Shown here: piece by piece, positions 1,249 through 59,826 of the stretch
How positions within the stretch are numbered: position 1 is the stretch's first letter
Layout of the letters: each line of letters opens with the position of its first letter
Source: Clostridia bacterium
GTDB taxonomy: Bacteria > Bacillota > Clostridia > UMGS1883
Direction: 5' to 3'
DNA: 62,166 bases
Assembly: GCA_045656645.1 (NCBI GenBank)
Contig: JAZORN010000060.1
Span: forward strand, 1-62,166
Notes under the pieces: model-generated
Told to the model about the DNA's origin: nothing
Seen by the model: only the letters and a program-made list of their open reading frames with translations
Databases searched by the model: none
Translations under genes and position numbers: made by a program

Positions 1249-2139
1249 GTGAGAACAAAATCAATTTTCACCGGCTCCTGCTGTGCGATAATCACACCAT
1301 TTGACAAAAACGGTAATCCTAACTTTGATGCGCTTGCAAAAATTATAGAGCAGCAGATAGAAGGCGGTACTGACGCTATCTGTGCCTGCGGAACAACGGG
1401 CGAGGCCTCTACAATGGATGACAAAGAGCATCTTGGTGTTATTGAATACATTGTAAAAAAGGTTGACGGCAGAATCCCCGTTATTGCGGGAACAGGCTCT
1501 AACGATACACGTCACGGTATTGCACTTTGTAAAGATGCTCAATCACTTGGCGTTGACGGTCTTCTGATTGTTACACCTTATTACAACAAAACTTCTCAGC
1601 GTGGTCTTATCCACCACTATGAAACACTTGCAGACAGTGTCGATAAGCCTATTATTCTCTACAATGTTCCGGGAAGAACGGGTGTTAATATTGCACCCGC
1701 TACCTTAAAGGCGCTTGCTGACCACCCCAACATTGCAGGTATTAAAGAGGCTTCGGGAAATATGGCGCAGGTTGTTGAAATGGTTTCTCTGTGCGGCGAT
1801 AAAATTGATTTTTATTCAGGCTGCGACGAAATCAATGTTCCGATTGCATCTGTCGGCGGAAAGGGTGCTATTTCAGTTCTTGCAAATGTTGCCCCCAGAC
1901 AGACACATGATATGATGCAGTTTGCACTTGACGGTAATTTTAAGGAAGCGGCACGCCTTCAGACAGAGGCACTTGACCTAATCAATGCCCTTTTCTGTGA
2001 GGTTAATCCCATCCCCGTTAAAGAGGCTATGAATATTCTCGGCTTTAATGCAGGTCCTACAAGACTTCCTCTTTACAAAATGGCAGACGAAAACATTGAA
2101 CGTCTTAGAAATTCAATGAAAAATTACGGTATAATATAA
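1249..2139 (+). CDS. dapA: 4-hydroxy-tetrahydrodipicolinate synthase
   Basis: GTTGE, YNVPGRTG, IKEAS motifs; GTG start after GGGAGG. Confidence 0.97.
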   Translation: MRTKSIFTGSCCAIITPFDKNGNPNFDALAKIIEQQIEGGTDAICACGTTGEASTMDDKEHLGVIEYIVKKVDGRIPVIAGTGSNDTRHGIALCKDAQSLGVDGLLIVTPYYNKTSQRGLIHHYETLADSVDKPIILYNVPGRTGVNIAPATLKALADHPNIAGIKEASGNMAQVVEMVSLCGDKIDFYSGCDEINVPIASVGGKGAISVLANVAPRQTHDMMQFALDGNFKEAARLQTEALDLINALFCEVNPIPVKEAMNILGFNAGPTRLPLYKMADENIERLRNSMKNYGII

Positions 2140-2142
2140 TAA

Positions 2143-2284
2143 GGATGACAAAGTCATCCTTTCGAAAAAGAAATTTTGCAATGCAAAACATTCTTTTTCG
2201 AGGTAAGGGCTTACGCTCGCACGGCACTCACCGTGCCAGCCCTTTATAGGAGTCAAAAACGAGGTGCACGCCCCCGTTTTTGAC
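2143..2284 (+). repeat. four-hairpin structured intercistronic repeat (family B), copy 1
   Basis: Aligns to 60128-60268 with compensatory stem changes. Confidence 0.85.
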
Positions 2285-2405
2285 GGATTATATGTTAAGG
2301 GAGCGCCCTTAACAATCCCCTTTAAGACGCAAATTCCTATGAGAAAAAACATATCTGAAACCGTGCCTTTCGGCACGGTTTCAGATATTAAAAGGATGGT
2401 TTCTT

Positions 2406-3164
2406 ATGATAAATATAATTTTAGTAGGCGCAAACGGAAAAATGGGACAGGTAATCTCCCGTATAACAGAAGAAAATTCAAACGCAAATATTGTCTGCGG
2501 CATCGACATAAATACAGAAAAGAAAAATTCTTTTCCCGTATATTCTTCCTTTGATGATGTAAAAGAGCAGTGCGATGTTATTATCGATTTTTCACATCCA
2601 TCCTCTCTTTCATCTACGCTCCAGTATGCAATAAATAATAAAAAGGCAATCGTTATTGCTACAACGGGGCTCTCTGACGAACAAATTCTTTCTATTAAGG
2701 CAGCATCTCAGACTATCCCCGTTTTCTTCAGCGCAAATATGTCTTTGGGTGTAAATCTTATTATACAGCTTGCAAAGAAGGCAACCGCTCTTTTAGAGGA
2801 TAATTTTGATATTGAAATTATCGAAAAGCATCATAACCTTAAAATTGATGCACCGAGCGGAACGGCACTTGCTATCGCTGACGCCATCAATGAAACGAGT
2901 GCACACTCAAACGAGTATGTATATGACCGCCATAGTATGCGCAAAAAGCGCAGCAAGCGTGAAATCGGTATTCACAGTGTTCGCGGAGGTACAATCGTGG
3001 GCGAACACGATGTAATTTTTGCAGGCAATGATGAAATCATCGAAATCAAGCATACTGCAACAAGTAAGGAAATTTTTGCAGTCGGCGCAGTTAAGGCGGC
3101 GCACTTCCTTGCAAATAAGGCGCCCGGTTTTTATAATATGGACGACCTTATTTCAGCTATTTAA
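2406..3164 (+). CDS. dapB: 4-hydroxy-tetrahydrodipicolinate reductase
   Basis: GANGKMG, EKHHNLKIDAPSGTA motifs. Confidence 0.97.
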   Translation: MINIILVGANGKMGQVISRITEENSNANIVCGIDINTEKKNSFPVYSSFDDVKEQCDVIIDFSHPSSLSSTLQYAINNKKAIVIATTGLSDEQILSIKAASQTIPVFFSANMSLGVNLIIQLAKKATALLEDNFDIEIIEKHHNLKIDAPSGTALAIADAINETSAHSNEYVYDRHSMRKKRSKREIGIHSVRGGTIVGEHDVIFAGNDEIIEIKHTATSKEIFAVGAVKAAHFLANKAPGFYNMDDLISAI

Positions 3165-3175
3165 AGGAGTTTTTT

Positions 3176-3847
3176 ATGAAAAGAACATCTCTTAGGGACA
3201 GAATACTTCCCTCCTATACTAAAGGGGAGGAAATTTTCAATATGGTCACTCACATAGTGGGTAGTGCTTCGGGCGTTTGTTACCTTGTGCTTTGCGTTAT
3301 AATGGCGGCAATCCACAAAAATGTATACGGAGTGGTTTCCTCCGCAATCTACGGTGCATCTGTGATACTTCTTTTTACAATGTCGAGTATTTATCACGGA
3401 CTTCGCCCCAGTATGGCAAAAAAGGTACTGCAGGTAATTGACCACTGCACAATCTATGTTATGATTGCAGGTACTTACACACCTATTACCCTTTCGGCAA
3501 TGAGGCCCCTTGCCCCCGCTCAGGCGTGGACACTTTTTGGAATTGTCTGGGGCGTTACCCTTGTAGCAATGGTTTTCACTGCAATTGACCATAATAAATT
3601 TAAAAAGCTTTCTATGATTTGTTATGTTGGACTTGGATGGTTTGTTATTGGTTTCTGGAATACTACCTATGCCGCAATAGGTATGGGCGGTGCAGTTTTC
3701 CTTGCCCTTGGCGGTGTGCTTTATACAATCGGTGCAGTGCTTTACGGCATCGGTAAAAAGAAACGCTACATTCATTCGCTATTTCATATATTTGTAAATG
3801 TAGCAAGTCTGATGCATTTCTTCTGCATATTATTCTACGCAGTGTAA
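3176..3847 (+). CDS. hemolysin III / PAQR family membrane protein
   Basis: EEIFNMVTH, SSIYH, DHCTIY..IAGTYTP, HSLFH motifs; multiple TM segments. Confidence 0.9.
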   Translation: MKRTSLRDRILPSYTKGEEIFNMVTHIVGSASGVCYLVLCVIMAAIHKNVYGVVSSAIYGASVILLFTMSSIYHGLRPSMAKKVLQVIDHCTIYVMIAGTYTPITLSAMRPLAPAQAWTLFGIVWGVTLVAMVFTAIDHNKFKKLSMICYVGLGWFVIGFWNTTYAAIGMGGAVFLALGGVLYTIGAVLYGIGKKKRYIHSLFHIFVNVASLMHFFCILFYAV

Positions 3848-3883
3848 AGATGACAATGCCAACCTTTCGAAAGAGAATTGAAT

Positions 3884-3919
3884 AAAAAAATATCTCTCCT
3901 GATGGAGAGATATTTTTTT
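3884..3919. terminator. bidirectional intrinsic terminator
   Basis: AAAAAAATATCTCTCC-TGAT-GGAGAGATATTTTTTT between convergent genes. Confidence 0.85.
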
Positions 3920-8642: not shown

Positions 8643-8718
8643 TGGTGAGCCATCGGAGATTCGAACCCCGGACAACTTGATTAAAAGTCAAGTGCTCTGC
8701 CGACTGAGCTAATGGCCC
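8643..8718 (-). tRNA. tRNA-Lys(TTT)
   Basis: Cloverleaf, anticodon loop CTTTTAA, encoded CCA. Confidence 0.97.
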
Positions 8719-8723
8719 GTATG

Positions 8724-8800
8724 TGGCTGGGCTGGCAGGACTTGAACCTGCGCGTACCAGAGTCAAAGTCTGGTGCCTTTACCGACTTGGCTACAGCCCA
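8724..8800 (-). tRNA. tRNA-Gln(TTG)
   Basis: Cloverleaf, loop CTTTGAC, CCA. Confidence 0.97.
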
Positions 8801-8835
8801 ACATTATAATGCTGAGTGCAACTCAGGTTGGAAAG

Positions 8836-8913
8836 TGGGGTGGATAGAGGGACTCGAACCCTCGGCCTCTAGAGCCACAATCTAGCGCTCTAACCAACTG
8901 AGCTATACCCACC
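8836..8913 (-). tRNA. tRNA-His(GTG)
   Basis: Cloverleaf, loop TTGTGGC, G-1/C73, CCA. Confidence 0.97.
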
Positions 8914-8919
8914 ATATTT

Positions 8920-8996
<77 letters not shown>

Positions 8997-9024
8997 ATAT
9001 TTTGCCGTATAATAGGCAAAAAAG

Positions 9025-9098
9025 TGGAGCGGGTGATGGGAATCGAACCCACCTATCCAGCTTGGAAGGCTGGTGTTCTACCAATGAACTACACCCGC
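9025..9098 (-). tRNA. tRNA-Gly(TCC)
   Basis: Cloverleaf, loop CTTCCAA, CCA. Confidence 0.97.
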
Positions 9099-24892: not shown

Positions 24893-25347
24893 GTATTTTT
24901 AATACATCAACCCCTACCCCACTCTTTGGGGTATTTATGCCATTTTGAGCGCCAAAATGGCGAAAAGCGTCGGGGGATTTCGATTTCCCCCGAGCCCCTT
25001 TGAAACGACCTCGCAGGGGCGCTTTCAATTTCGGGCGTGCCACAGAATTAGTAATTGGTCTTTGTTTATAAATTTGCTTTTCTTTCTTACGCCGTCCGCA
25101 TTGAAATACTCATTTTCAAGATGGACTAAAAATTGCCCGTCAGCAGCGGAAATTGATACGAGCAATTTTTACCCAAGAAAGCAAAGCAAATTTACAAACC
25201 CTGAGAGTGTGGAAGTTAGTTAGTTTTATATCAAACTAACTGCAGCGATAAAGCTGCGTTTTTCCGTGGTTTTGGTCTTTTTGACACCAAAAGGACATAT
25301 TGATACGTGCTCCACGTATGTTTCTTAAGCTTTGCTTATTTTTACAC
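24893..25347 (+). mobile_element. family C structured element, internally deleted copy
   Basis: Near-identical to 58345-59019 but lacks about 58725-58942. Confidence 0.88.
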
Positions 25348-25364
25348 AACGTATTTTTCAATAC

Positions 25365-25610
25365 AAAAAAATCGTCCTATGCTAAATAGGACGAAGTCGC
25401 TTTTTCACCTAATTAGCATACCATCATATGCGTCCCCTTAACAGAGGGACCCCCTGTCGTCGCTTAATCGTAATTAATCAATTAATGTACTTTCAGCAAC
25501 GCAGCTCAGAAGTGATATTCACCGTCGGTTAATCTGCATCAGGCTCACACCGTCCCTGATTCGCTACGCCATTTCACCTTACGGCTACTGTCTTCGTCAC
25601 AGCTTTTATA
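25365..25610 (-). promoter_or_regulatory. T-box leader with Ile specifier, atypical antiterminator bulge
   Basis: GA motif, AGCGA/GGTGTGA stem I, specifier ATC at 25516-25514, GCTGAAAG stem II, terminator TCGTCCTAT/ATAGGACGA plus T-run. Confidence 0.9.
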
Positions 25611-55277: not shown

Positions 55278-56942
55278 ATGGCTAAGGAACGTTATTATTA
55301 TGATGTGCAGCCACTCACTTCCCTCAGAGAGCTGATTGAGCTTGCAAAAAACGAATCCGGCGACACGGTTGCCTACAAATTTAAAAACGCTGACAAACAA
55401 ATCGAGGAAGTCACCTACTCACAATTTTATGAGGATGTATATTCCCTCGGCACAGCACTTGCAGATATGGGGGTTTCAAAAGCACATATTGCCTGCATTG
55501 CAGAAAACAGCTACAAATGGATTAATACATATCTTATGACACTTTGCTCCGACTGCGTATTTGTCGGCATTGATAAGGAGCTTCCCGAAAAGGATTACCT
55601 TCACGTTATCAAAGACAGTGACAGCGAGGTTGTATTCTACCACCAGAAGATTGAGGATAGTCTTCGCGCTCATCGTGAGGAGCTTTCAAAGGTTAAATAC
55701 TTTATCGGTATTGACCGCAGTGAGGATGACGGGGAATTCCTTTCCTTTGACCTTCTTCGTGAAAAGGGACGTGCTCTCTACAAAGGCGGAAACACCTCAT
55801 ACACCGATATGAAAAACGATTATGAGGCAATGAAGATGCTTGTTTACACATCAGGCACAACAGGTTTTTCAAAGGGCGTTATGCTTTCAGAAAAAAATCT
55901 TGTTTCCCTTATTTATTTCGGTCTTCGTTCTGCTACAATATATGACAGATGCCTTTCAATACTCCCCTACCATCATACATATGAGGCAGTATGCGGCATC
56001 CTTGTAGGTATACATAAGCGTGTTACACTCTGCATCAATGAAAGCTTGCGTGCAGTTGCAAAAAACCTTGCATTATATAAGCCAAACTATATGTACGTTG
56101 TTCCCGCAGTTGCATCTGCACTGCATAAAAATGTACTGCGCACTGCACAGAAGCAGGGAAAGCTTAAAGTGCTTCTTCTTATGATGAAGGTCAGTAATGC
56201 CCTCAGAAAGGTTGGAATTGACCTTAGAAGAAAGCTTTTCGCATCTGTTCACGAAGGGCTTGGCGGTGAGCTTTTAGAGGTTGTTTGCGGTGGTGCACCT
56301 ATTCCCGTAGATACTGCATATTTCTTTGATGCAATCGGTATTATGATACTTAACGGTTATGGCATTACAGAATGTTCACCTCTTGTAAGTGTAAACTCAC
56401 CCAAAGACAGTGATTACAAAACTGTAGGCTATCCGCTTGAGTGTGTTGAGATTAAAATTGACGAGCCTGATAACGACGGAATTGGTGAAATCTGCGTTAA
56501 GGGTGACATTGTAATGCTCGGCTACTATAAAAAGCCTGAGCAGACCGCAGAGGTTATTAAGGACGGCTGGTTCTCTACGGGCGATTTTGGTTACTTAAAC
56601 AAAAAGGGACAGCTTGTTATTACGGGAAGAAAGAAAAACATTATTGTTCTTGACAACGGCAAGAATATTTACCCGGAGGAAATTGAGGAATATATTTATA
56701 CAATTCCTTATGTTAAAGAGGTTGTTGTGTACGATTCGACAGACGGTGATAAGCTTATCCTCTGTGCTGAAATTTACCCTGACAACGAGCTTTTGGGTGA
56801 CAGCGATGTAAATGCCGACATCTGCAGAGTTCTTTCCGAGCTTCCCCCGTATAAACAGATTGGTAAAATCGTAATGCGTGAGGAAGAGTTCGTGAAAAAC
56901 TCCTCCAGAAAAATCAAACGTGGCGAAATTATTAAGAAATAA
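55278..56942 (+). CDS. long-chain fatty acid-CoA ligase / AMP-binding enzyme
   Basis: YTSGTTG..KGV, GYGITE, TGD, GRKKN. Confidence 0.92.
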   Translation: MAKERYYYDVQPLTSLRELIELAKNESGDTVAYKFKNADKQIEEVTYSQFYEDVYSLGTALADMGVSKAHIACIAENSYKWINTYLMTLCSDCVFVGIDKELPEKDYLHVIKDSDSEVVFYHQKIEDSLRAHREELSKVKYFIGIDRSEDDGEFLSFDLLREKGRALYKGGNTSYTDMKNDYEAMKMLVYTSGTTGFSKGVMLSEKNLVSLIYFGLRSATIYDRCLSILPYHHTYEAVCGILVGIHKRVTLCINESLRAVAKNLALYKPNYMYVVPAVASALHKNVLRTAQKQGKLKVLLLMMKVSNALRKVGIDLRRKLFASVHEGLGGELLEVVCGGAPIPVDTAYFFDAIGIMILNGYGITECSPLVSVNSPKDSDYKTVGYPLECVEIKIDEPDNDGIGEICVKGDIVMLGYYKKPEQTAEVIKDGWFSTGDFGYLNKKGQLVITGRKKNIIVLDNGKNIYPEEIEEYIYTIPYVKEVVVYDSTDGDKLILCAEIYPDNELLGDSDVNADICRVLSELPPYKQIGKIVMREEEFVKNSSRKIKRGEIIKK

Positions 56943-57030
56943 TTATAATCAATTAGTAGAACTGCCTGTTTTGGCAGTTCTATTTTTTTGCCTGTCCGCA
57001 TATATTTATTCTGACAAAGGAGGATTTTTT

Positions 57031-58353
57031 ATGCAGACAGAGTATCCACCTCTTCGTGGGGGCGGTTTTATTATATCACCACAAAACTCAGGCACTATTC
57101 CAAAGGCAAAGCCCTTTTCCCCACCCCGAAAAAAAAGAGTAGTAAAAATAAAGGAGCTTATCTTTCCCGTTTTAAGTGACTACTGCTCTTACGCAGAAGG
57201 TATGACAAGCCGCATTATTTCAAAGCTCCTTTCTTCACTTATCGCACTGTGCTCAGTAGCAGTATTTTTTAAATATTTTACTTTCGGAACAATAATCTGT
57301 GTTGACGGAAACTATGTTGCCACCGCAAATTCTGACAAGAGCTTTTACAGTGCTTATTCTGCCGCCGATACAATAGCAGAGCAAAACGGAATTTATGATT
57401 TTAAACCTGATTTTTCGCTGACACCGACACTTACACTTAAAAACAATATCGAGAGCACACAAACAGTCCGTGACGAGCTTCTTCTATCCTCACCGCATTT
57501 TGTGCGTGGATGTGTTCTTTATTCAAAAAACACTCCCGTTTTCAGTGCCGAAAGCAAGAGCATTGCAAAGGAAGTTGTTGACGATTATATAAAAGCTTAT
57601 TCAATGAACGGCACTGTCAGCCTCAGCAGTGATATCAGTTTTAAGGAATGTGTTATTTCAAGAGATGAAATTTCAGGCAAAGAAGAATGCAGCGACCTTC
57701 TTTTTCAAAAAGATGCCATTGCCGTTACAAGTGTTGTAAATAAGGCTGTGGAAAAAGAAATTCCTTTTGAAACAAAAACACAAAATGACGCAAATCTCTA
57801 CATAGGCGAAAGTGTTACAGTTACCGAAGGTGTTCCGGGAAAATCAGCAATAACAGAAGAAACTGTTTATCATAACGGCACACAAAAATCAAGCCGAATT
57901 CTCACGGAAAATTTAATTCTTCCGCCCGTGACAAAGGTTGTCCGTGTAGGTACAAAGGAAAAGGAGGTTCTTAAAACGGGCGTTCTGTATCCTCTTGAGG
58001 GGGTTATTTCCTCCCCTTTTGGGTCCCGTTGGGGAAAAATGCACGAGGGGCTTGACATTGCAGTAAGCGAGGGTACACCCGTGCTTGCCGCAGAATGCGG
58101 CACTGTATCATACGTCAGTGAAAACGCAGGCGGTTACGGAAAATTTATCCGCATTGACCACGGCTACGGCGTAGAAACCGCGTACGCACATCTTAGCAAA
58201 ATTGAAGTGAGTGTAGGGCAAAGCGTAAACGCAAATACACGTATAGCACTAAGCGGCAATACGGGAAGGTCAACAGGACCGCATCTGCATTTTGAAATAA
58301 CACAAAATGATACACCGCTTGACCCTATAAAATATCTAAAAAAACGTTTTTAA
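57031..58353 (+). CDS. G5 and M23 domain peptidoglycan peptidase
   Basis: G5 (VTEGVPG..VVRVGT), HEGLD, STGPHLHFE; AGGAGG RBS. Confidence 0.9.
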   Translation: MQTEYPPLRGGGFIISPQNSGTIPKAKPFSPPRKKRVVKIKELIFPVLSDYCSYAEGMTSRIISKLLSSLIALCSVAVFFKYFTFGTIICVDGNYVATANSDKSFYSAYSAADTIAEQNGIYDFKPDFSLTPTLTLKNNIESTQTVRDELLLSSPHFVRGCVLYSKNTPVFSAESKSIAKEVVDDYIKAYSMNGTVSLSSDISFKECVISRDEISGKEECSDLLFQKDAIAVTSVVNKAVEKEIPFETKTQNDANLYIGESVTVTEGVPGKSAITEETVYHNGTQKSSRILTENLILPPVTKVVRVGTKEKEVLKTGVLYPLEGVISSPFGSRWGKMHEGLDIAVSEGTPVLAAECGTVSYVSENAGGYGKFIRIDHGYGVETAYAHLSKIEVSVGQSVNANTRIALSGNTGRSTGPHLHFEITQNDTPLDPIKYLKKRF

Positions 58354-59019
58354 TATATCAACCCCTGCCCCAATCTTTGGGGATATTATATGCCATTTTG
58401 AGCGCCAAAATGGCGAAAAGCGTCGGGGGATTTCGATTTCCCCCGAACCCCTTTGAAACGACCTCGCAGGGGCGATTTCAATTTCGGGCGTGCCACAGAA
58501 TTAATAATTGGTCTTTGTTTATAAATTTGCTTTACTTTCATTGCGCCGTCCGCATTGAAAAACTCATTTTCAAGATGGACTAAAAATTGCCCGTCAGCAG
58601 CGGAAATTGATACGGGCAATTTTTACCCAAGAAAGCAAAGCAACTTTACAAACCCTGAGAGTGTGGAAGTTAGTTAGTTTTATATCAAACTAACCATAGC
58701 CATAAAGCTGCGTTTTTCCGTGTTTTTTGTCGACTACCGAGAAATTGCGAGCATCATTTTCCTTTGCTGGCTCGCAATTTCAGCCGTCAGAGGAAACTAA
58801 GTGTTTCCTTTTTGTAGGCGGCGGTTCAAAGGCGGAAAGCACGGAAAAACAATACCCACACTGTATAAATGATATATCGTCCATTATTTTCTGCGCCCCT
58901 GCGAGGTCGTTTTGGGGGCGTGGGGGAATCGAAACCCCCACGTTTTTGGTCCTTTTGACACCAAAAGGACATATTGCCTAGCGCTCCGCTCATTTTTTAA
59001 GCATTGCTTTTTCTTACGC
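58345..59019 (+). mobile_element. family C ~680-bp multi-hairpin element, full copy
   Basis: Second copy at 24893-25347; perfect 19-bp long-range IR 58456-58474 / 58894-58912. Confidence 0.88.
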
Positions 59020-59064
59020 TAAAAAAGAGATAGAATGGATGCGCCCTTCTATCTCTTTTTTAGT
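59019..59064. terminator. bidirectional terminator
   Basis: CTAAAAAAGAGATAGAA...TTCTATCTCTTTTTTAG. Confidence 0.8.
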
Positions 59065-59667
59065 TTATTCCTTTGGTATATGTACTTTCTTGGTTTTCTT
59101 ATCAACACAAACTATCACATACCCGTTTTTATAAAGCTTTTCTCCTGATAAAAACTCCAGCGGATTGCCCTCGCTTTCATTTACCAAAAGTCCGAGGGCA
59201 CTGCTGCCGTCACTTTCCCCCACATAGTAATGTCCGTGCCTTTTAAAATTATCGTAAACACTTTTATTACTTAAAATGTACCTTATTTCCTCCTGCAGAT
59301 TTTTATAGCTTTTTTCCGTTACTTTTTTCCAGTTAAATCCGTCAATCTGAAACGGAGCGACTTCCTGCATTTTTTCCTCCGCTTTGTCAGGCAATGGCAA
59401 AGTATTTTCATTATCTTCTGCGTATTTTCCTATAAACATCTGTCTTCCCGTCTGCGTAATTAATATGGCATTATGTTTTTTTGTATCAATGTTTTTTTGA
59501 AGTTTCCCGTCTACAAGATTTCCGATGCTTTCCGCCTCGCCACCGATAAGCCAGGCTTTCATACCACCGCAGACACCGTTTATCTGAATCTCTACTGATG
59601 TATCTGTCACTCTTGCACTTCCCTTACCTATTTCGGCAAGGGGGGTAAGCTCAATTATTTTTTCCAT
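59065..59667 (-). CDS. hypothetical protein
   Basis: About 200-aa ORF with GAAAGGA RBS; no family recognised. Confidence 0.75.
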   Translation of the reverse strand: MEKIIELTPLAEIGKGSARVTDTSVEIQINGVCGGMKAWLIGGEAESIGNLVDGKLQKNIDTKKHNAILITQTGRQMFIGKYAEDNENTLPLPDKAEEKMQEVAPFQIDGFNWKKVTEKSYKNLQEEIRYILSNKSVYDNFKRHGHYYVGESDGSSALGLLVNESEGNPLEFLSGEKLYKNGYVIVCVDKKTKKVHIPKE

Positions 59668-59826
59668 ATTTATCATTCCTTTCATTTATAGTTATGAAAA
59701 ATCGGTTATAATTATTATCAAATTGTAAAGTTTTAGACTTTTTTCCAAATAAGGTGTTGAAAAAATTTTTAAATGTGATATTATATATATCTAGACATAA
59801 AATTTTAAGGGCTTATTATTTTTTAG

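Follow-up and report, generated by a model that had tools for sequence, protein, structure and literature searches.

A large gene-less repeat with multi-hairpin inverted ends, probably a non-autonomous transposon, in an uncultured genus of gut Clostridia

Genomic location of the element

The 62,166-nt stretch analyzed here (positions 1 to 62,166 of contig JAZORN010000060.1 from the Clostridia bacterium assembly GCA_045656645.1, hereafter the window) contains a 675-nt non-coding element at 58344-59018 on the plus strand. To its left lies a gene encoding a protein with G5 and Peptidase_M23 domains (56920-58353; Pfam 1.6e-19 and 8.6e-34) and to its right a bidirectional terminator hairpin (59019-59063), followed by a convergent minus-strand gene without a Pfam family (59065-59685). 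Open reading frames (ORFs) overlapping 58345-59019 reach merely 40-84 amino acids, in agreement with an earlier note on this DNA that had seen no credible ORF; as in miniature inverted-repeat transposable elements (MITEs), there is no coding capacity. With a probability of roughly 0.6, we regard the element as a copy of a new, large, gene-less and non-autonomous transposon family that is MITE-like, related to "mobile insertion cassettes" and confined to one uncultured gut genus of the Clostridia/Oscillospiraceae.

In the following, G000 denotes the window's own genome (2.14 Mb in 109 contigs, 85% complete), other G numbers denote other genomes, C numbers contigs and L numbers extracted loci. 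The genomes G052 and G009 represent sister species of G000. "Query" refers to the 675-nt element sequence, with coordinates counted from its start.

Insertion with duplication of the target

In G000, the sequence CTAAAAAA is found on both sides of the 675 nt (Table 1). In both G052 and G009, the end of the orthologous M23 gene runs directly into its own terminator, with a single A-run (..TTTAAAAAAGAGATAA..). Because these two sites are empty and CTAAAAAA is doubled in G000, we conclude that the 675-nt element is an insertion that duplicated 8 bp of its target. The combination of target duplication and filled/empty polymorphism that characterizes MITEs is thus present at the M23 site, and the second copy within the window is supportive. 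The insertion changed the end of the M23 protein from ..KYLKKR to ..KYLKKRF, the first bases of the element encoding the final codons (..R F stop). Homology begins in these last codons of the gene, as the earlier note had recognized when it placed the start of homology in the M23 stop region.

A-runs also border the second window copy, at a site where G009 lacks an element. At the same position, G001 carries only 14 nt between two A-runs, which we read as the remnant of a deletion between the 14-nt terminal direct repeats of an element. All nine distinct left ends (9/9) are preceded by a run of the type TAAAA(A), which pairs with the T-run at the tip of the element. For the right ends listed, an A-run follows 7-43 nt downstream and is often the A-tract of a host terminator.

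Architecture of the element

A profile of the end module searched with nhmmer yielded 56 plus/minus pairs, corresponding to 39 unique elements, which served as the set for the counts of length and context. For alignment A1, 31 elements were halved and the right halves reverse-complemented, resulting in 62 sequences over ~300 columns. These 62 halves can be aligned, which shows that the element is made of two ~290-nt units in inverted orientation (an inverted dimer). In the query, positions 44-130 match the reverse complement of 550-630 at 76%, so that the terminal inverted repeats of a MITE are present as well.

From the outside inward, each unit consists of hairpins X and A, hairpin B, an A-tract with the GC hairpin C, motif D (CGNCCTCGCAGGGGCG) and a three-way junction (Table 1). 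The loop of hairpin C is TTSCGATT, and B, C and D together form an 85-nt terminal module. The stems of hairpins X and A vary among copies while their loops are kept. Covariation of a terminal hairpin, claimed before, is borne out by A', in which AGCG-CTC-CGCT (58980-90) corresponds to ACGTG-CTC-CACGT in the second window copy. In the left junction, H2 has a variable 12-13 bp stem (the 14-bp pair 58581-94 / 58612-25 is located here) and a conserved 17-nt loop; the right junction contains a 15-bp (58712-26 / 58836-50) and a 12-bp pair (58741-52 / 58770-81). All helices listed in the earlier note could be located in the sequence: the 19-, 15-, 14- and 12-bp pairs as well as the G5/C5 hairpins. 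The predicted folds are very stable on the plus strand (-273.6 kcal/mol, z = -14.1) and on the minus strand (-260.4 kcal/mol, z = -10.2), with 0 of 20 dinucleotide shuffles equal in either case.

A terminator scan flags hairpin C' (58912-58949), and the left hairpin C, read on the minus strand, is also a GC hairpin followed by a T-tract, so that both face outward. The A/T-tract beside hairpin C is at least 90% conserved in the 62 halves, giving the GC stem plus T-run that is typical of a putative intrinsic terminator. Given this outward-facing form at both ends, transcription coming in from the left or the right would be expected to reach a terminator on the opposite side of the element.

Table 1. 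Positions of the element's features and of the second copy within the window
Feature	Position	Strand	Remarks
Target duplication, left copy, CTAAAAAA	58336-58343		Within the last codons of the M23 peptidase gene
Outer hairpin A, left, CCCCAA-TCT-TTGGGG	58368-58382	+	End type also found in elements of other species
Hairpin B, left, xxxxTTTTG-loop-CAAAAxxxx	58392-58414	+	Opens the 85-nt terminal module
Hairpin C, left, G5-TTTCGATT-C5	58425-58444	+	Conserved A-tract 5' of it; helix 1, 96.4% of cells paired
Motif D, left strand of the perfect 19-bp repeat	58456-58474	+	Conserved, no covariation with its partner
Left three-way junction	58526-58643	+	Stem P 58526-39 / 58631-43, H1 58548-80, H2 58581-625
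Central hairpin linking the inverted halves	58673-58694	+	From the inverted-repeat list of the sequence and alignment A1
Right three-way junction	58712-58850	+	Stem P 58712-22 / 58840-50, H2' 58741-81, H1' 58792-808; inverted homologue of the left junction
Motif D', right strand of the 19-bp repeat	58894-58912	+	Perfect inverted repeat with 58456-58474
Hairpin C', G5-AATCGAAA-C5, then TTTTTGG	58922-58939	+	Terminator-like for outgoing rightward transcripts
Hairpin B', right	58948-58970	+	From alignment A1
Outer hairpins A' and X'	58980-59009	+	A' 58980-90 AGCG-CTC-CGCT; X' 58999-59009 AAGCA-T-TGCTT
Target duplication, right copy, CTAAAAAA	59019-59026		Also the A-tract of the host's bidirectional terminator hairpin 59019-59063
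Second window copy	24896-25345	+	~450 nt, right half deleted (query 388-599 absent), A-run flanks

Copies, deletion forms and distribution

BLAST of the 675 nt against G000 returned 44 pieces, which were grouped into 23 places on 18 contigs. Thirteen of the 23 places touch a contig end; the repeat therefore breaks the assembly. The G000 copies are 88-95% alike and mosaic, some being truncated and others carrying extra DNA. Differences between copies consist of indels and of compensated changes in the stems. Among the 39 unique elements, 31 are 530-600 nt long. A loose search with the loop motifs gave mostly chance matches across the genome, and solely matches with stems of 9-13 bp were kept.

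Besides the ~450-nt second window copy, a 170-nt form on contig C75 retains the ends alone (query 3-99 and 574-668), and in G043 a ~75-nt form of the order A-B-A' occupies the same site at which G017 carries a full element. This series of deletion forms can be explained by the palindromic nature of the hairpins, as a result of which an inverted twin is a direct repeat, too.

On one side of the second window copy, a hairpin plus T-run is read on the minus strand (about 25355-25400); on the other side lies the ribosome-binding site for a gene on that strand. The copy thus lies within the leader of this gene, antisense to it; Rfam has no leader RNA there. Some copies contain an optional GC-rich module of ~115 nt within or beside hairpin C (G000:C7:35400-35510; L030, L031, L084 and L097 (1860-1990)), and on G009:C78 this module is apparently fused to a host terminator. 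G000 also harbors other repeats (C72:9137-9705, C103:39251-39807 and C74:1-480) belonging to at least two families of ~270-560 nt with ~15-21 self-matches each, which share no sequence with the element.

Within the genus, 21 of the 24 other genomes match the element. In the same order outside the genus, matches were found in 0 of 1 genome of a second family and in 2 of 15 genomes of a third. A 31-nt pattern of the end module occurs in 62 stretches among 185,579 species genomes, all 62 records being titled as Clostridia or Oscillospiraceae metagenome-assembled genomes (MAGs). The pattern was also present in five stretches of metagenome contigs and in none of the viral contigs; the plasmid and phage collections gave 0 matches. 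An 18-nt pattern of motif D, which has chance matches in unrelated GC-rich taxa, was left out of these distribution counts. The public runs that contain the stretch are animal-gut metagenomes.

Relatives that carry genes

Three relatives contain protein-coding genes between the same ends. In L193 (1721-3010, from G004:C6; 1.29 kb), ends of the B-C-D type and long GC-rich inner repeats enclose an XRE helix-turn-helix protein (PF01381 2.4e-16; PADLOC capH model 8.2e-14) and a 98-aa protein without a family. The ends of L215 (1.36 kb) also surround an XRE helix-turn-helix protein. In L248 (record JAZPYX010000006.1; 1.5 kb), they enclose a single gene (2074-3348, corresponding to G047:C6:42998-44269) for a 424-aa protein of the PD-(D/E)XK type, which matches PDDEXK_4 (PF14281 2.6e-24) and, over its full length, the PADLOC candidate defence family PDC-S26 (4.8e-68). 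This protein was found in only one of the 39 genus genomes, its own, and is therefore cargo rather than the mobilizing enzyme.

These loci show the arrangement of mobile insertion cassettes, that is, transposon ends around passenger genes without a transposase, while the window copy has no passenger gene. Judging from the arrangement of these loci, the family appears to behave like transposon ends that are able to carry passengers, the window copy being the gene-less form with two long ends placed head to head. The earlier note had proposed to count copies and to look for longer, ORF-bearing ones: there are 23 places in G000 and three gene-bearing relatives, none of which encodes a transposase.

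In G009, two small ORFs without a family (100 and 69 amino acids) adjoin half-elements (L082:640-1317 on C7 and L080 on C23), a right half among them. Another copy is adjoined by a similar minus-strand ORF. These ORFs may represent a small two-gene cargo.

Search for a mobilizing enzyme

The Y1_Tnp (PF01797) and TnpB zinc-ribbon (PF07282) domains were not found in G000 at its 85% completeness, and the ISL3 family gave 0 matches there. G000 encodes an IS256-family transposase (Transposase_mut, 2.6e-115) on contig C47 (2016 nt) and at C13:2742-3868, C26:2-379 and C87:9570-9722. The C47 copy has an intact ORF of 411 amino acids and inverted ends of ~30 nt starting with GTGTGAGA, which are unlike those of the element. 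We considered this insertion sequence (IS) as a partner and rejected it, as its ends share merely 12- and 15-nt matches at chance level with the element (E 0.076 and 0.30).

The multi-copy ORFs of G000 are housekeeping duplicates and two tyrosine recombinases, none of them beside a copy. Genes next to 15 solo ends are either housekeeping genes or have no assigned family. Because MAGs commonly lose IS contigs, the absence of the enzyme from G000 proves little. Contig C65 carries, at 1589-3911 (L179), a neighboring pair of genes for tyrosine recombinases (301 and 384 aa, Phage_integrase family), which is repeated on C64.

Compensatory changes maintain the hairpins

RNAalifold predicted 39 pairs on A1, and in 32 of these both sides have changed with pairing kept. 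Paired cells make up 92.6% (71.9% when shuffled), 521 cells are changed on both sides (163 when shuffled) and the covariation score is 0.549 (0.197 when shuffled); for each of these measures, 0 of 500 shuffles were as high. Since the sequences are related, the shuffle count overstates the case. Slid controls, in which the 3' partners are moved by 1-3 columns, are free of this effect: here, 37-58% of the cells pair, with a score of at most 0.168. The H2 stem exists in at least 12 different, perfectly complementary versions, and 10 of its 17 loop positions are at least 90% conserved. Hairpin B, which is absent from the prediction because of a one-column offset, shows six arm types, and in 55 of 60 halves the outer 4 nt of its arms are fully complementary. 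Random disruption of helices among copies was the observation that the earlier note had named as speaking against its proposal; instead, changes in the stems are compensated.

The long-range helix of 19 bp fared differently. The perfect repeat on which it was based exists, and its two strands do not covary: the D motifs of one element are 0.802 identical (n=31), those of different elements 0.805 (n=930), and the two D motifs are identical, forming a perfect helix, in only 2 of 31 elements. What looked like a helix is a single conserved motif occurring at both ends.

The structural constraint is symmetric with respect to the strands

A constraint on RNA from one strand should favor G·U over A·C pairs, and in real RNA families G·U far outnumbers A·C. 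We compared both pair types in 37 of the 39 predicted pairs, omitting 116/137 and 120/125 (the latter a fixed T·G). Among the resulting 2260 cells, Watson-Crick pairs account for 2039, G·T for 49, A·C for 50 and other combinations for 122. For the 11 elements between co-directional genes, the strand that would be read through carries 15 G·U and 14 A·C. The better-folding strand is also inconsistent, being the plus strand of the query in 19 of 33 elements and the other strand in 13, with one tie.

The 39 elements occur in all gene contexts: 8 between divergent, 8 + 8 between co-directional and 5 between convergent genes, and 10 with one side unknown. A scan for promoter-like sites within the element found 0 compared to 1.9 expected. 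For a divergent promoter at the element centre, no consistent motif was visible by eye in A1 and none was found by the scan. Metatranscriptome contigs that overlap the element come from three libraries (two studies). Such contigs show neither strand, ends nor transcription, and gaps in their coverage carry no information; one of them carries the deletion joint of the 170-nt form (58440>58938). In a contig from RNA library X18, 58427-58474 is joined to 58738-58893, that is, the right half is combined with a reverse-complemented left arm at the 19-bp repeat. Either a variant with swapped arms or misassembly at the inverted repeat accounts for this join.

A search of 57800-59600 on both strands with cmscan, which the earlier note had suggested with OLE, GOLLD, ROOL, HEARO and group I/II introns in mind, gave 0 Rfam matches at E<=1. 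At the gathering score, the whole window contains five tRNAs and nothing else in Rfam. These tRNA genes (Lys, Gln, His, Arg and Gly) are clustered on the minus strand at 8643-9098.

We conclude that the structural constraint acts on both strands. It could reflect folded DNA (cruciforms or intermediates in single-stranded form), RNA transcribed from either strand, or the correction of mismatches templated by hairpins. The latter would produce compensated changes without intermediates but leaves unexplained why the loops are more conserved than the stems.

Comparison with known repeats

The closest known kinds are bacterial MITEs, among them bcr1. Like RUP of pneumococcus and Correia/nemis of Neisseria, the element is non-coding, multi-copy and intergenic, has inverted ends and a target duplication, folds into long stem-loops, occurs in deletion variants and possibly acts on neighboring transcription. 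It differs from them in its length of 575-675 nt, in inverted ends of ~290 nt with five to seven hairpins including a three-way junction, and in the strong covariation of its interior hairpins; a parent IS was not found.

A review describes bcr1 of the Bacillus cereus group as a mobile, transcribed repeat flanked by direct repeats of 5 bp, in which compensatory changes keep a cruciform-like fold (PMC3184786). The bcr1 repeat measures ~155 nt and has two stem-loops. The element shares with bcr1 the interspersed mobile nature, the short flanking direct repeats and the compensated cruciform-like fold. It is four times larger, its pairing is strand-symmetric, and neither Rfam nor BLAST indicated a sequence relation.

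The relatives L193, L215 and L248 resemble mobile insertion cassettes such as MIC231 in that transposon-type ends surround passengers without a transposase. MIC231 is mobilized by IS231; for the element, in contrast, no such partner was found, and the window copy carries no gene.

With repetitive extragenic palindromes (REPs) and the mosaics built from them (BIMEs), the element has in common palindromic units in mosaic arrangement, a position beside gene ends and terminators, and conservation of structure. In contrast to these, in which single REPs measure 20-40 nt, it has a target duplication, and no Y1 gene was found in G000. In the same review, movement of REPs is hypothesized to depend on the REP-associated tyrosine transposase (RAYT) (PMC3184786). 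ROOL, GOLLD and OLE RNAs are of comparable size (0.6 kb) and likewise have many helices as well as optional domains, but the element has no match to an Rfam model, is multi-copy and mobile, pairs strand-symmetrically and has no promoter that we could find.

The RAYT enzyme belongs to the HUH Y1 family. Palindrome-associated elements derived from IS200/IS605 (PATEs) and REP/RAYT systems have no target duplication, carry subterminal hairpins on the same strand and use a Y1 HUH transposase. Here, a duplication is present, the ends are inverted, and PF01797 and PF07282 were not found in G000.

Literature searches directed at such repeats turned up no description of the family, which is weak evidence for its being undescribed. 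Four features distinguish it from the closest known kinds: a larger size; ends of 290 nt that combine several hairpins with a putative terminator and a three-way junction; pairing that is symmetric between the strands; and the existence of relatives with cargo.

Interpretation

Of the two alternatives that the earlier note had left standing, a non-autonomous structured mobile element agrees with the target duplication, the empty site, the 23 places, the internal deletions and the genus-wide occurrence; a large non-coding RNA (ncRNA) is not supported. The element inserted at an A-run beside a terminator, duplicating 7-8 bp of the target, and internal deletions between its palindromic hairpins have produced the 450-, 170- and ~75-nt forms. 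In the scenario that we favor, an enzyme supplied in trans would recognize the ends. The hairpins may be kept by selection acting on both DNA strands in folded form (as cruciforms or single strands) or by hairpin-templated correction, and the outward terminators, by stopping transcripts at the far end of the element, could make insertions beside genes tolerable.

Several observations weigh against this scenario. There is a single clean comparison of a filled with an empty site. Four further sites could not be used to call a duplication, as the sister species differ too much there between the genes. The evidence for the duplication thus consists of one clean case and one supportive case. The limits of the element are blurred at its outermost ends: the right tail ranges from 7 to 43 nt, and the outermost ~45 nt of the two ends are not inverted copies of each other. 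The strong covariation of the interior hairpins is unexpected for a plain transposase-binding end. Bacterial MITEs are generally <200 bp, some reaching ~400, according to the review cited above (PMC3184786). By comparison, the window copy with its 675 nt and 31 of 39 relatives with 530-600 nt exceed the size usual for MITEs (<~400 nt). Among the 39 unique elements, around 17 solo ends (2-kb flanks included) and in collections of plasmids, phages and viruses, neither an autonomous copy nor a transposase with these ends was found. Finally, the IS256 family gives duplications of 8-9 bp, yet the ends of the G000 member are unrelated to those of the element.

A further possible reading is an undescribed, structure-dependent cassette system. 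Its ends of 85-290 nt, consisting of covarying hairpins, a terminator and a three-way junction, would be recognized as folded DNA (cruciform or single strand) by a structure-specific enzyme, and the system would shuttle small payloads, including candidate anti-phage genes. We consider this unlikely. The gene-less 0.6-kb form would then serve as the smallest vehicle of the system, or be a non-coding payload that has its own function.

A mosaic of smaller palindromic units, spread by recombination or nested insertion in the manner of BIME/REP or BOX-like repeats, would make the 85-nt B-C-D module the real unit and its filling variable. In favor of this, the interiors between the same ends differ widely, from three-way junctions to genes with a GC-rich 190-nt repeat or a gene for a nuclease; the ~115-nt module beside hairpin C is optional, end hairpin types are swapped among elements, 170- and ~75-nt forms occur, and in one RNA-library contig the left arm replaces the right one. 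Nevertheless, the entire 675-nt unit is present or absent at the M23 site with a single duplication, and 31 of 39 elements are of near-equal length with the same order of parts, so that we judge a mosaic to be rather improbable.

Even less probable is movement as single-stranded or hairpin DNA. The enzyme would be of the HUH (Y1) type, as in PATEs derived from IS200/IS605 or in REP/RAYT, or else a tyrosine recombinase that acts on folded sites, as in integron attC cassettes; in the latter case, the A-run would be a crossover core and not a duplication. The end hairpins do conserve structure and not sequence, the same A-run borders different sites, the cargo consists of small cassettes, and contig C65 of G000 has the repeated pair of tyrosine-recombinase genes. 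Against this stand the failure to find Y1_Tnp and the TnpB zinc ribbon in G000, the inverted and symmetric ends, which differ from the same-strand hairpins of IS200/IS605, and the lack of a recombinase gene beside, or of a circular junction in, any copy examined.

An ornate ncRNA gene in the manner of ROOL, GOLLD or OLE, multi-copy by chance and with hairpins and complementary loops making tertiary or quaternary RNA contacts, could account for the very stable fold (z -14.1), the covarying local helices with conserved loops on variable stems, the optional domains and the metatranscriptome contigs from three libraries (two studies), in which neither strand nor transcription is shown; it is nonetheless very improbable, as there is no Rfam match at E<=1 and no promoter-like site, the copies lie in all contexts and both orientations, insertion with target duplication contrasts with an empty site, G·U is no commoner than A·C, the better-folding strand changes, the complementary loops follow automatically from the inverted symmetry, and a single transcript would hold one of the two inverted homologous halves in antisense.

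Implications

A stretch that looks like a large RNA can thus be mobile DNA, and counts of G·U and A·C pairs together with orientation and context provide a simple discriminator. On a practical level, the family breaks assemblies, as seen from the 13 of 23 places at contig ends in G000, and alters gene ends and leaders. As a MITE-like transposon, the element would stretch the MITE concept by its size of 0.6 kb, its structured ends of 290 nt and the wholesale compensation of stems with conserved loops. It would also link gene-less repeats to cassettes with candidate defence genes in an uncultured gut lineage, and identifying the enzyme that recognizes the ends could reveal a structure-specific mechanism of transposition or recombination.

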